DNA of 64,000 nucleotides from an uncultured cyanobacterium (lineage in GTDB: Bacteria; Cyanobacteriota; Cyanobacteriia; Cyanobacteriales; Cyanobacteriaceae): NCBI GenBank assembly GCA_963710605.1, contig CAVQBA010000006.1, positions 288,001 through 352,000 on the forward strand, given 5' to 3'. The translations under genes were made by a program, and so were the position numbers. The notes below the pieces were generated by a model. That model had not been told where the DNA came from, did not search any database, and worked only from the letters and a program-made list of their open reading frames with translations. Below, piece by piece: positions 38,469-41,250 of the stretch (positions are counted from its first letter, which is position 1; every line of letters begins with the position of its first letter).

Positions 38469-39317
38469 ATGAACGATCGAGGTGTAATTTTAAATCAAGG
38501 TAATGGTGCTTGGGCATTTAGTCATCATGCTCAACGTTTAGCTCGTAGTTTGTGGTTAAAAATCGGCGATTCACCAGCCCCGTTAAATTATGTATTGTGG
38601 TGTGAAGACGATCGATTATACTCAAATATTAATTCTTTTATTCCCTTAAGTGGAATCAAGATTGCCTCAGATAAACGTCTGATAGCTCAAAAATTTATTG
38701 AATATAACGTTGCTACACCAAAAACTTTTTTGATTGAAACCAAAGATGAATTGAGTGATTTTCTGAGGAAAAATAATAATCAACAGTGGTGTTTGAAATG
38801 GCCGACAGGATGTGGTGGAATGGGGCATCAATTAATTAATAGCCAAAATTATCAACAAATTGCCGATGATTATCCTCGACCGTTTGTAGTGCAAAAATTT
38901 GTGCAAATGGAGAAACCAAAAGTTTATCGTACTTATTGTGTTGCCGAGGAAATCTTTGGTTGGAATGTCCGTCAGTATGCTCAAGAAGTCGATCGTGTTT
39001 CTCCTTGGGTATCTCATGCTAACGGTGCAAGATATAATGTTACTAGAAATATTCCCGATGAAGCAAAATTAGTAGCGACTAAAGCACTCAAAGCCACAAA
39101 TTTATATTCTTCTTTTGGGTGTGTCGATTTAATTATTGATGATGATAAATGGAAAGCTCTTGAAGTAGGTACAGATGGTATTTATAATTATGTCGATCGA
39201 GATTTTAATAATTCAGCGTTAGAAGATTTAATTAACAAAAAGTTAGCGCTCGCATTTTGGTCAAAAATTGGCGAACCGCCTTGGGGTAAAGGAGAATGGT
39301 ATTATCAAAAACTATAA
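38469..39317 (+). CDS. ATP-grasp (RimK-like) protein
   Basis: SDK, TPKT, LKWPTGCGGMG, VVQKFV, GCVD, ALEV. Confidence 0.75.
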   Translation: MNDRGVILNQGNGAWAFSHHAQRLARSLWLKIGDSPAPLNYVLWCEDDRLYSNINSFIPLSGIKIASDKRLIAQKFIEYNVATPKTFLIETKDELSDFLRKNNNQQWCLKWPTGCGGMGHQLINSQNYQQIADDYPRPFVVQKFVQMEKPKVYRTYCVAEEIFGWNVRQYAQEVDRVSPWVSHANGARYNVTRNIPDEAKLVATKALKATNLYSSFGCVDLIIDDDKWKALEVGTDGIYNYVDRDFNNSALEDLINKKLALAFWSKIGEPPWGKGEWYYQKL

Positions 39318-39544
39318 GTACCTGTGCAAAATTATTTGTACATTTTTTTGTAGGGGTGCAAGCGGTGGAATCCCGCGTCGGCGAAAGACGCAAACGGTCA
39401 GAACCCGCGACGACGGCAAGTCGCAAGGGAAGGCTGACCAAGACGGGAACGTCCACCAAGACGGTTTGCACCCTTTATTTAGTAATAGGTTCATGGATAT
39501 GAAATAATTGTTAAAATGCACAATTAATTTTGTTTACCTACTTA
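39315..39544. mobile_element. MITE-like element with ~32-bp imperfect inverted ends, enclosing a REP hairpin that carries two nested ~50-nt structured insertions
   Basis: TAAGTA......CAAAATTA.TTGT.CATTTT at both ends in inverted orientation; GC-rich core 39350-39474. Confidence 0.8.
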
Positions 39545-39654
39545 GATGAGAATTAGAATTACTATTAATTAAAAAAATAACTATTAAATTTGAGTGATTA
39601 TAGTTAACAAAGGCTAACTAAATCCTCTTTTTCAAGGTTGTAAGCCTTGCACCT

Positions 39655-41250
39655 TTAATTATTTTTTTTGGTATAAACTCGATAATCAATATCAGGGAAA
39701 ATATTATCTAGTGCCTCTAGTTTAGTTAACCAAGCACTATCAATTTTACGATCGCAAATTTGTTTATAAAGACGATGAAATCTTAGTAAATGATTTTTAG
39801 TTCTTTTCTCAGCATAAGGCACCATTGTACCTGTACGCATAATAAAAGCCCAATCGGAGGACTGTGCCAGTAATAACTCCCTTGCGGCTTGATTTAAAGC
39901 ACGACGCTCTAATTCGTCTTCAGCATATCGATTCGCTAATTCGATCATTCTTTCGGTAGCACTATGTAAATGAGGATAAATCCAACTATTAGTTTCATTC
40001 AACCAATATTGATGAAAACCTTGAAAACCCCAGCTTGATTGAGCAGGTTTTGCTAATTGATGAACCGTATTTTTTTGTAGATAACCCGCTAAATGAGTCA
40101 TTTCGATCGTATCTTGATCAAACCATGTTTTCCTGAATAAAAAGTCGATAAATTGTGGTCCTTCATACCACCAATGTCCATACAATTCAGCATCATAAGG
40201 AGAGACGATTAATGGTTGTTTACCCATCACTCCCATCAAATGTTGAACTTGTAATGCTCGATTTTGTAAAAAATTACCTGCGTGTTCGGCCGCCTTTTCT
40301 GTTGCCCAGTAAGGATCATAAAGCTCTTTTTGCTCTAAATTAGCCTGACGATGAGTGATTTTATGATATTTAACCCCAACATTTTTTCTTTCGCCGTTGG
40401 GCATGATATATGGCTTAATATATTCATAATCAGCTGACCAACCTAAGTCTTTATAAAACTCACGGTAATTACTATCTCCTGGGTAACCTACTTGCGATGA
40501 CCAAACTTGTTGTGATGATTCGTTATCTCGACTAAAAACGGCTACTCCTGTCTCTGTAAGTATTGGTGCATAAGTACCATATTTAGGTCGAGGATTAGCG
40601 TTGGTGATACCATGACCATCGGTGATAAAATATCTTAAACCCGCAGAAGCGATCGCTTTTTCTAGACCTTGAAAATAAGCACATTCAGGTAACCAAATAC
40701 CTTTAGGGGCTTGACCAAAATGTTGTTGATAATCTTCGCAAGCTACTTCAATTTGTGCTTTAACTGCTGAAGGATACATCTGCATTAGCGGTAAATATCC
40801 ATGAGTTGCACCAGAAGTAATAATATCTAAATTGTTGCTATCTTGGAAATTTTTAAACGCAGTAACTAAATCACCTTGGTATTTTGCCCATGTTTTACTA
40901 ACAGAATCAAATTCTTGCTGATAATGTTGGGCTAAGTATTTGATATGTCCATTGTATTGATTATTTTTGACTTCTAAAGCAATTAATTCTTGTAATTTTT
41001 GTAAATATTTTTCGTATTCTGCTTGTAAATATTCATCCTTTAACATTGCAATCAAAGGAGGTGTTAAACTCATGGTGAGTTTGAAATCTACTCCATCCGC
41101 TTTCAGTTTTTCAAATTTTTGGATTAGAGGAATATAAGTTTCGGTAATGGCTTCGTATAACCATTCTTCTTCTAAAACGTAGTTTGGTTGTGGGTGGCGA
41201 ACAAAGGGTAAATGTGCGTGTAATACTAAAGCAAGATAGCCAAGAGTCAT
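39655..41250 (-). CDS. GH57-family glucan branching enzyme (DUF1957)
   Basis: LVLHAHLPFVRH, EAITETYIP, GIWLPECAY, PYDAELYGHWWYEGP, AQSSDWAF. Confidence 0.93.
   Translation of the reverse strand: MTLGYLALVLHAHLPFVRHPQPNYVLEEEWLYEAITETYIPLIQKFEKLKADGVDFKLTMSLTPPLIAMLKDEYLQAEYEKYLQKLQELIALEVKNNQYNGHIKYLAQHYQQEFDSVSKTWAKYQGDLVTAFKNFQDSNNLDIITSGATHGYLPLMQMYPSAVKAQIEVACEDYQQHFGQAPKGIWLPECAYFQGLEKAIASAGLRYFITDGHGITNANPRPKYGTYAPILTETGVAVFSRDNESSQQVWSSQVGYPGDSNYREFYKDLGWSADYEYIKPYIMPNGERKNVGVKYHKITHRQANLEQKELYDPYWATEKAAEHAGNFLQNRALQVQHLMGVMGKQPLIVSPYDAELYGHWWYEGPQFIDFLFRKTWFDQDTIEMTHLAGYLQKNTVHQLAKPAQSSWGFQGFHQYWLNETNSWIYPHLHSATERMIELANRYAEDELERRALNQAARELLLAQSSDWAFIMRTGTMVPYAEKRTKNHLLRFHRLYKQICDRKIDSAWLTKLEALDNIFPDIDYRVYTKKNN

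Follow-up and report, generated by a model that had tools for sequence, protein, structure and literature searches.

A two-deep stack of a ~50-nt structured unit in a repetitive extragenic palindrome of an uncultured cyanobacterium: probable copies of a non-autonomous mobile element

The window analyzed here is a 64,000-nt stretch of DNA from an uncultured cyanobacterium of the family Cyanobacteriaceae (GenBank assembly GCA_963710605.1, contig CAVQBA010000006.1, positions 288,001 to 352,000 of the forward strand), and the subject of this report is a GC-rich island at positions 39350-39474. The island is probably best explained as a repetitive extragenic palindrome (REP) that carries a two-deep stack of a non-autonomous mobile element of ~50 nt, called the unit below. 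An earlier reading of the letters alone (the sequence-only reading) had noticed a GC-rich island in an AT-rich genome, and indeed the G+C content is 63% in 39350-39449 against 33% for the whole genome of this window (G000; 3.93 Mb, 7 contigs designated C1-C7, 85% complete). It had also dissected the island into nested layers around a REP-like hairpin. The layers stand, all quoted letters are found where it placed them (inner unit, 39395-39443; outer unit, 39363-39394 and 39444-39461), and its alignment of the two units over their whole length, with compensatory changes in the stems, is borne out. Its boundaries do not stand, because each unit is one base longer at both ends. With the corrected ends, and with P1 denoting the stem that joins the two ends of a unit, the island is composed as follows.

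39350 to 39361, + strand: 5' arm of the host REP-type hairpin (GTAG + GGGTGCAA); its empty form, GTAGGGGTGCAAGGTTTGCACCC, occurs at ~36 loci
39362 to 39393, + strand: 5' half of the outer unit (GCGGTGGA...GACGCAA), with the P1 5' arm GGTGGA, CCC and the GCGTC/GACGC helix
39394 to 39444, + strand: inner unit, complete, 51 nt (ACGGTCAG...CTGACCAAGAC), with P1 formed by 39396-39401 and 39434-39439
39445 to 39462, + strand: 3' half of the outer unit (GGGAACGTCCACCAAGAC), with GGG, the P1 3' arm TCCACC and the tail AAGAC
39463 to 39473, + strand: 3' arm of the host REP-type hairpin (GGTTTGCACCC), placed by sequence reading and the empty copies

The two halves of the outer unit add up to 50 nt, and the host hairpin is 23 nt long.

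Ends, copies and fold of the unit

The ends of the unit can be fixed because many copies are hosted by heptamer arrays and by hairpins that also occur empty. The empty 23-nt hairpin was found at ~36 loci in G000 (40 rows with a 2-nt loop, four of which are both-strand duplicates), and the same search found the filled hairpin 8 times; at least six further filled copies with variant arms appeared in other scans. Removal of 39362-39462 from the window leaves the canonical empty hairpin, letter for letter, whereas the boundaries of the sequence-only reading would leave behind a CGG, which is found in none of the empty copies. ACTCCTT heptamer arrays, for their part, stay in phase only on removal of exactly GCGGT...CCAAGAC. 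Judged from the empty sites, the unit starts with (G/A)CGGT and ends with CCAAGAC, and the canonical form is 5' GCGGT-NNN-A-NN-CCCGC-(small helix)-GCAA-GGGAA-N-G-NNNN-CCAAGAC 3', 50-51 nt in length. These ends bear directly on the model of the sequence-only reading, in which an enzyme inserts units at CGG cores and thereby duplicates CGG. ACGG (39394-97 and 39443-46) and CGGT (39363-66 and 39462-65) are present as quoted and do flank the units as drawn there. However, the ~36 empty hairpins have no CGG in their loop, the ACTCCTT arrays permit only the boundaries given above, and the empty alleles described in the next section are without duplication, so that this model is extremely improbable. 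Target-site duplication is absent at these units, and the repeat is only apparent, because units start with (G/A)CGG and end in C, and GG of the host comes next.

The unit family in G000 was surveyed genome-wide by local BLAST and motif searching, and then by a covariance model (R1). R1 gives 56 matches (E<=1; 3.9 Mb), and the dispersed non-coding family of ~50 nt that had been suspected from a single locus is thereby established; the inner unit is the match at C6:327394-327444 (68.5 bits, E 4.8e-15). According to the motif scan, in which clusters were allowed at most one mismatch, there are 28 single units, 12 two-deep stacks and 2 three-deep stacks, as well as several forms with extra 3' halves and 49 lone half-motifs, which are mostly chance and in some cases tRNA T-arms. 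Outer-type units without interruption also exist, for example at C4:658901 and C6:378086. P1 types and middle modules are recombined in many combinations among the units of G000, and the P1 type tracks the host: GGTGGA is found in ACTCCTT and GA.AATT arrays and in REPs, and GGTCAG in CCCCTCT palindromes and GTTGATA arrays.

The fold tested consists of P1 (6 bp), CCC/GGG and a 5-bp inner helix. From G000, 37 contiguous units were extracted, and the 29 distinct ones form an alignment (A1) in which 95.1% of 406 cells are paired and 7 of the 14 pairs changed on both sides. None of 500 shuffles was as good on four of five measures, and when the partners were slid by 1-3 columns, 24-39% of cells were paired. 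One row of A1 (L027), in which two units are fused into a chimera, speaks against the fold. RNAalifold, unaided, recovers P1 and CCC/GGG from A1. Units from elsewhere were obtained by an exact-pattern scan of 185,579 species genomes, which yielded at least 115 stretches; these loci are cited below by L numbers. When R1 was run over 100 of them, all from other cyanobacteria and with L150-L164 left out, 115 units were obtained, of which 91 are distinct. In this set 97.3% of cells are paired and 11 of the 14 pairs changed on both sides, with no shuffle out of 500 as good on any of the five measures and 25-50% pairing after sliding; the alignment was fitted to R1, and the pattern by which the loci were picked demands exact letters in the conserved columns, with the stem letters left free. 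The covarying stems proposed for the two units of the island thus recur in G000 and elsewhere, and it is shown that both helices are maintained by compensatory change, which points to selection on the folded form.

P1 occurs as GGTGGA, GGTCAG, GGTGAG, GGTCGG, GGTGCG, GTTCAG and GGTGAA, each with its complement. Several unpaired letters, by comparison, are nearly invariant: the 5' GC, a T and an A in the region of the 5' arm, the AA bulge, GAA.G and the tail AAGAC. Fixed unpaired letters on a variable stem are the pattern expected of a hairpin that is read by a protein. The same fold is predicted with DNA parameters, and the inner unit, given the model structure, folds as DNA with -10.4 kcal/mol. 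For the island, a 136-nt RNA fold has -62.6 kcal/mol (z -5.9) and forms one nested structure, and a 125-nt DNA fold has -29.0 kcal/mol (z -3.5); in each case 0 of 200 shuffles were as good. A single known Rfam RNA covering the whole 125 nt would be another explanation of such a structure. A search of 39000-39900 at a permissive E-value gave best matches of 12-20 bits against gathering thresholds of 45-100, which is the level of chance, with no family near threshold.

Two further observations concern the letters of the unit. Its 5' motif (GCGGT...A..CCGC) also picks tRNA T-arms, for example at C6:427860, C6:645765, C7:218370 and C4:873217, and the first 15 nt of the unit could make a T-arm-like 4-bp stem with a 7-nt loop that has T at position 1 and A at position 5. 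This fold excludes P1/P2, and the letters involved are invariant, so that it is beyond the reach of covariation. In addition, a second micro-element of ~49 nt, TTCTTGAAAAAGTTGTTCATGGGGGA.ACCCCCAAGACCACACTTTTCC, lies inside units just 5' of GCAA (C1:220565-220711, C4:1172019-1172123, C7:410061-410161 and C6:199804-199889). It has a GGGGG/CCCCC hairpin followed by AAGAC, which matches the unit tail. This micro-element is possibly a minimal relative served by the same machinery.

Empty alleles, targets and stacks

Filled and empty alleles in relatives, which the sequence-only reading had suggested should be looked for, were found as clean differences of 51 or 102 nt by flank-to-flank BLAST among the at least 115 loci (127 unit blocks); six candidate pairs were aligned. 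TnpB genes that are 77-87% identical differ by exactly 51 nt (L137 versus L111; L147 versus L050 and L118). In L147 and L118, the stretch that follows the TnpB gene cleanly lacks a 102-nt double unit that is present at the homologous place in Dapis (L050). The left flank of this empty site ends in G, and so the unit must include the last A of ...CCAAGAGA. Okeania SIO2C9 and SIO2B3 (L098/L096) show a one-unit difference between flanks that are 95-100% identical, and this is not a clean empty site, since a few junction letters differ as well. In a four-genome alignment, O. hirsuta has the outer and inner units and Okeania SIO2C9, with flanks 95-98% identical, has the outer one only; seven letters are altered at the nest point of SIO2C9, and two other Okeania species have unrelated sequence there. 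From the clean alleles it is shown that the unit is present or absent as a block of 50-51 nt or a stack of 101-102 nt, with no target duplication. At three orthologous spacers, as compared with C6:520000-539999 of G000, both heptamer arrays and units are missing from G001, a sister species of the same genus. Within a genus, arrays and units thus appear and disappear jointly from species to species, a comparison that shows turnover and not boundaries. At this very locus no empty allele was found among GH57 orthologues in 19 relatives, which are 60-73% identical and have unrelated downstream spacers, and the G001 assembly (67% complete) is without the locus.

Units are hosted after A-rich runs, in heptamer arrays, in hairpin loops, in the AA bulge of another unit and in transposase genes. 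In 98 non-redundant junctions outside G000, among the matches listed, the base at -1 is A in 87%, A makes up 58-66% at positions -4 to -2, and the base that most often follows the unit is G. In the 22 junctions of G000, the unit is preceded by AA, GA, TA or TT. Hairpin tips, the bulge, slippage-prone arrays and IS200/IS605 elements as hosts suggest a preference for single-stranded targets. Two other ideas on targeting were rejected. A 7-nt target duplication that was later amplified into arrays is contradicted by REP, TnpB and nested sites, which show no duplication, and base pairing between P1 and the target is contradicted by the occurrence of the same P1 in all kinds of targets outside G000.

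Insertion of units into one another, as read from the island, is a regular feature of the family and has a fixed site. In 38 of 44 nestings (15/15 in G000 and 23/29 elsewhere), the inner unit sits between GCAA and GGG of its host; three of the remaining six are in the loop of the inner helix, and three follow a variant sequence. The stack of the island itself was probably not built in place, layer by layer. A twin at C6:775076-775200 is 98.4% identical over 125 nt, has unrelated flanks and shares the rare A that opens the inner unit, and the stack at 39350-39474 probably arrived whole. A third double-filled REP is located at C1:187331. The pair of an outer GGTGGA and an inner GGTCAG unit is also found in ACTCCTT arrays (C4:1252497, C7:343441, C7:445577 and C1:114958), in a GTTGATA array (C7:550522) and in a GA.AATT array (C6:714273). 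With the twin and the same pair in several arrays, a unit-in-unit acts like a single unit, and a REP can be copied as such together with its cargo.

Deeper stacks and surplus halves were observed as well. In Okeania sp. KiyG1 (L114), positions ~1420-1673 hold a five-deep stack in which three units have P1 GGTCGG, and this stack shows either self-nesting or tandem amplification of halves. In a tally over G000 and the matches listed elsewhere, surplus 3' halves outnumber surplus 5' halves by ~29 to 4; up to six 3' halves stand in tandem with a 19-nt period at C4:1143678-1143981. Such a surplus fits slippage between longer 5' halves, or 5' truncation. Other surplus 3' halves are found at C1:33395, C6:367903 and C4:50809. 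In many of the surplus 3' halves as a whole, ACCGAA replaces GGGAA.

Distribution and resemblance to known repeats

The distribution of the unit across cyanobacteria is shown to be patchy. R1 matches were found in 16 of 61 relatives of the same order, in 5 of 151 genomes spread evenly over the phylum, all five in this order, and in 4 of 81 genomes of the heterocystous family sampled, which is that of a Rivularia metagenome-assembled genome (MAG). Among the matches listed, 79 of 80 titles name cyanobacteria and one reads "uncultured bacterium"; the carriers named there are Okeania, Dapis, Xenococcus, Waterburya, Pleurocapsa, Baaleninema, Crocosphaera, Cyanothece, Spirulina, the Rivularia MAG and others. 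Xenococcus PCC 7305 has 75 matches and a Waterburya MAG 69. No match to the 99-nt stack was obtained by blastn in a plasmid collection, and the exact unit pattern occurs 0 times in viral contigs. In Xenococcus sp. PCC 7305 (G068), many units lie within ~100 nt of a contig end (e.g., C4:3-52, C49:19-68 and C91:2-51 of that assembly), and the unit evidently breaks short-read assemblies.

Part of this distribution involves insertion sequences (ISs). Three IS200/IS605 copies in G000 contain a unit with P1 type GGATGCG, otherwise foreign to this genome, which lies inside the TnpB frame and shifts it. Units within TnpB frames are also present in G048 (two), Okeania and Baaleninema. In G019 a unit lies in an IS1-type gene, and in G002 a unit lies in a DDE_5 gene and adds an in-frame stop; 1 of 24 matches of G019 and 2 of 12 of G002 were inspected, and near-identical scores suggest that the remaining matches are copies of the same IS. 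IS genes (TnpB, IS1, DDE_5) can thus carry units between genomes, and because the units ride inside ISs, this would explain why G002 and G019 are positive but their congeners negative. TnpB is the only recurrent mobile gene within 4 kb of units, at 15 of 115 loci among the matches listed, as a raw count.

Among known repeats, the closest in kind are the small dispersed repeats (SDRs) of cyanobacteria. In 2008, Elhai et al. reportedly described SDRs of 21-27 nt in Nostoc punctiforme and relatives, which are said to occur in tandem heptamers and nested in each other. Like these, the unit is far below 100 nt, dispersed and present in many copies (56 in G000; 69-75 in Waterburya/Xenococcus), and it shares precise insertion, heptamer arrays, nesting and presence/absence between related strains. 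In papers that cite that work, SDRs are "some 20 bp" long and possibly mobile, and SDR5 is inserted precisely within the HIP1 octamer (PMC4390886, PMC3116915, PMC2884548, PMC5861425); one of them has SDRs confined to Nostocaceae (PMC5861425). The unit differs in its 50-51 nt, about twice the SDR size, and in its demonstrated two-helix fold. As against the range given by that citing paper, it is found mostly outside Nostocaceae, in unicellular, pleurocapsalean and oscillatorian lineages, with 4 of 81 genomes in the family of the Rivularia MAG. To the extent that SDRs are portrayed in these sources, the unit family is of the SDR-like kind, and may be new within it. No description of this unit was found, by topic or by motif, in the open-access literature searched.

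Other systems share single features with the unit. With REPs and their REP-associated tyrosine transposases (RAYTs) it has in common the idea of a hairpin mobilized in trans as single-stranded DNA. However, units have no GTAG, are not simple palindromes, carry asymmetric loops and tails that are fixed, take up other units at a constant internal position and do not co-occur with the RAYT type tested. With IS200/IS605 and palindrome-associated transposable elements (PATEs) they share the lack of target duplication, seamless presence/absence, dependence on a hairpin and a short preferred flank, and they often lie inside IS200/IS605 elements. Nevertheless, a single P1 stem joins the ends of the unit, in contrast to the separate left- and right-end hairpins of PATE; the target is only A-rich, with no fixed word; no clear strand bias was seen; and no IS ends in G000 resemble the unit, since BLAST and motif scans of the whole genome returned only units. 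The attC sites of integrons are recognized as folded single strands with conserved unpaired bases. There the fold is read rather than the sequence, as is proposed for the unit, but the inverse-core and core triplets of attC are not evident on reading the units, for which no pattern search was made. Nor are units tied in any evident way to cassettes or to an integrase, for which no search was made either. Cyanobacterial Nezha is a miniature inverted-repeat transposable element (MITE) of a DDE transposon. Units are small, non-autonomous and dispersed as MITEs are, but they are without the usual terminal inverted repeats and target duplication and have half the size.

How repeats below 100 nt move, cyanobacterial SDRs among them, has been an open question since 2008. 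The unit family gives this question a defined object, with exact ends, a covariation-proven fold, a fixed nest point, a target preference and clean alleles. By record title, cultured carriers exist (Xenococcus PCC 7305, Crocosphaera chwakensis CCY0110, Baaleninema simplex PCC 7105 and Okeania hirsuta), and therefore trap assays and stem-mutation tests are feasible. In practical terms, units break assemblies, travel in ISs, and split or lengthen reading frames, including those of TnpB, which is of interest as an RNA-guided nuclease.

Possible movers and the surroundings of the locus

Matching halves of the unit around an open reading frame (ORF), 250-6000 nt apart, were sought as a sign of an autonomous copy, and the 14 candidates were all neighbouring units. 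No halves enclose an ORF, and therefore the unit is regarded as non-autonomous. For its movement, we tentatively favour a mechanism in which a hairpin is read on a single strand by an enzyme acting in trans, which seems the most likely of those considered. The unit would move as a folded single strand, most likely of DNA. A structure-specific enzyme, for which a HUH/Y1-type single-strand transposase is the best guess, would excise and join it in trans, and would read the P1 stem and the fixed unpaired letters and tolerate cargo inside the unit. The trans-acting enzyme is what we infer from the properties of the unit. In this proposal, a unit-in-unit would move as one piece, and the 125-nt twin would exist, because the enzyme tolerates cargo.

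Several results weigh against this mechanism. Y1_Tnp genes are present in 51 of 61 relatives, with or without units, so that no enzyme is singled out; the RAYT type of the host hairpin is present in 31 of the 61 and was not found in the unit carriers G055, G048, G058 and G031. One further carrier, G053, has three Y1-type genes according to a RAYT-type protein search. Co-occurrence with RAYTs, which the sequence-only reading had offered as a check, was accordingly not seen among the 61 relatives, and the IS110 family was not found in G000 (85% complete). A strand bias is hardly visible. In one near-complete genome, 20 units are on the plus and 32 on the minus strand among the matches listed, with no two-arc pattern and 405 of 1000 permutations as strong. 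In G000, 30 of 45 loci share the strand on which local GC skew is negative, a weak signal and not an independent one. G-T pairs outnumber A-C pairs by 24 to 4 in other genomes (16 of the 24 from one pair in one subfamily) and are outnumbered by 4 to 8 in G000, so that these counts favour the given strand only in the former. The target is a loose A-rich preference with no fixed tetranucleotide, many G000 junctions follow TT or TA, and junction variants are found at the nest site, where ACCGAA or CCTGGTA replaces GGGAA. Finally, almost all G000 copies lie inside other repeats (arrays, REPs, units), and recombination between these hosts could therefore explain part of the spread.

The last point can be extended to an explanation with no dedicated mover at all, in which units spread passively via recombination, gene conversion and template-switching between host repeats, and slippage makes the stacks and orphan halves. 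The tie between P1 type and host type in G000, the constant phase within each array type, the combinatorial reshuffling of P1 types and middle modules, and the 19-nt tandem run of 3' halves with its ~29:4 surplus, as slippage predicts, all speak for it. We nonetheless consider it unlikely. Near-identical units are found in different heptamer arrays and in unique coding sequence of distant genera with no homology of the hosts, diverged TnpB genes differ by clean blocks of 51 nt, and compensatory stems with fixed unpaired letters across genera point to selection on the folded form. A route through RNA, in which a transcript of the unit folds and a reverse transcriptase copies it into DNA again at A-rich nicks, would account for the A-rich targets, for the tolerance of G-U in other genomes (24 vs 4) and for the excess of orphan 3' halves, which resembles 5' truncation, and G000 has 18 RVT_1 matches. 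However, slippage explains the orphan halves equally well, and the inspected alleles have neither target duplication nor variable ends. No gene-orientation bias was found among 45 loci in G000 either: 15 are co-oriented and 12 opposed to tandem gene pairs, 9 lie between convergent and 8 between divergent genes, and 1 apparently overlaps an ORF. This route therefore appears decidedly improbable. The RVT_1 matches include clusters at C5:12130-29629 (at least six within 18 kb) and C2:4791-8789.

REP-type repeats can act as terminators, mRNA stabilizers or protein-binding sites, and the location of the island between convergent genes would suit a functional signal of this kind that is kept by the host and merely duplicated. 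The lack of orientation preference, the copies inside transposase frames, some of which break them, the patchy occurrence (16 of 61 close relatives), the absence from three orthologous spacers of the sister species and the lack of an Rfam match make this very improbable. A different reading of the same data is that the units form a distinct class of single-strand micro-transposons of ~50 nt, defined by a stem and a few fixed unpaired bases and tolerant of cargo. They would depend for mobilization in trans on an enzyme other than the RAYT of the host REP and other than any known IS function, would insert seamlessly after A-runs in transiently single-stranded DNA, and would be ferried inside ISs. 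This is possible but doubtful; if true, units would be among the smallest mobile DNAs. Bolder still is the idea that the folded unit is itself catalytic, a tiny self-inserting or self-excising nucleic acid, which would explain why it is tolerated inside genes.

GTAG is a mark of REPs. The host hairpin is an imperfect palindrome of GTAG + GGGTGCAA / TTGCACCC, is extragenic and has ~45 copies. RAYT-like genes were found in G000. One, of 197 aa, is located at C7:302324-302914, with a host-type hairpin 650 nt off at 301705, and another (C1:347592-348152) has GTAG hairpins on both sides. A paralogue at C7:534727-535403 is split by a hairpin with a unit (C7:534984-535059), with another REP at 534688. 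NCBIfam NF047646 (REP-associated tyrosine transposase) matches one paralogue with 208 bits; the gene at C7:302324-302914 reaches 59.6 bits, short of the 80-bit cut-off. The host hairpin is a genuine REP of a family with RAYT-like genes in G000. At the split paralogue, the REP system appears to have struck its own presumed transposase gene.

The neighbours of the island in the window are the following.

38469 to 39317, + strand: upstream gene of the ATP-grasp family; the hairpin element begins 32 nt past its stop
39316 to 39341, + strand: AT-rich module (AAGTACCTGTGCAAAATTATTTGTA type), itself a weak hairpin; found 5' of the REP hairpin type at ~8 loci
39634 to 39655, - strand: decayed copy of the same REP hairpin type, inverted, touching the GH57 stop codon (AAGGTGCAAGGCTTACAACCTT on the reverse strand, by reading only)
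39655 to 41250, - strand: downstream, convergent gene of a GH57 glucan branching enzyme

No relative of the upstream ATP-grasp protein was found among the genome contigs searched. Elsewhere in G000 there are four psbA-like and two psbD-like genes, which identify the genome as cyanobacterial. The AT-rich module at this locus (C6:327325) adjoins GTAGGGGTG.. hairpins elsewhere in the genome, the other loci being C2:28221, C4:183114, C5:29979, C6:631103, C6:733922, C6:745140 and C7:153. Since the module precedes the REP at ~8 loci, a larger repeat of ~60 nt sometimes includes the REP. The decayed inverted REP at 39634-39655 and the filled REP, taken together, may be the remnant of a doublet similar to REPINs (pairs of REPs that make up a hairpin).

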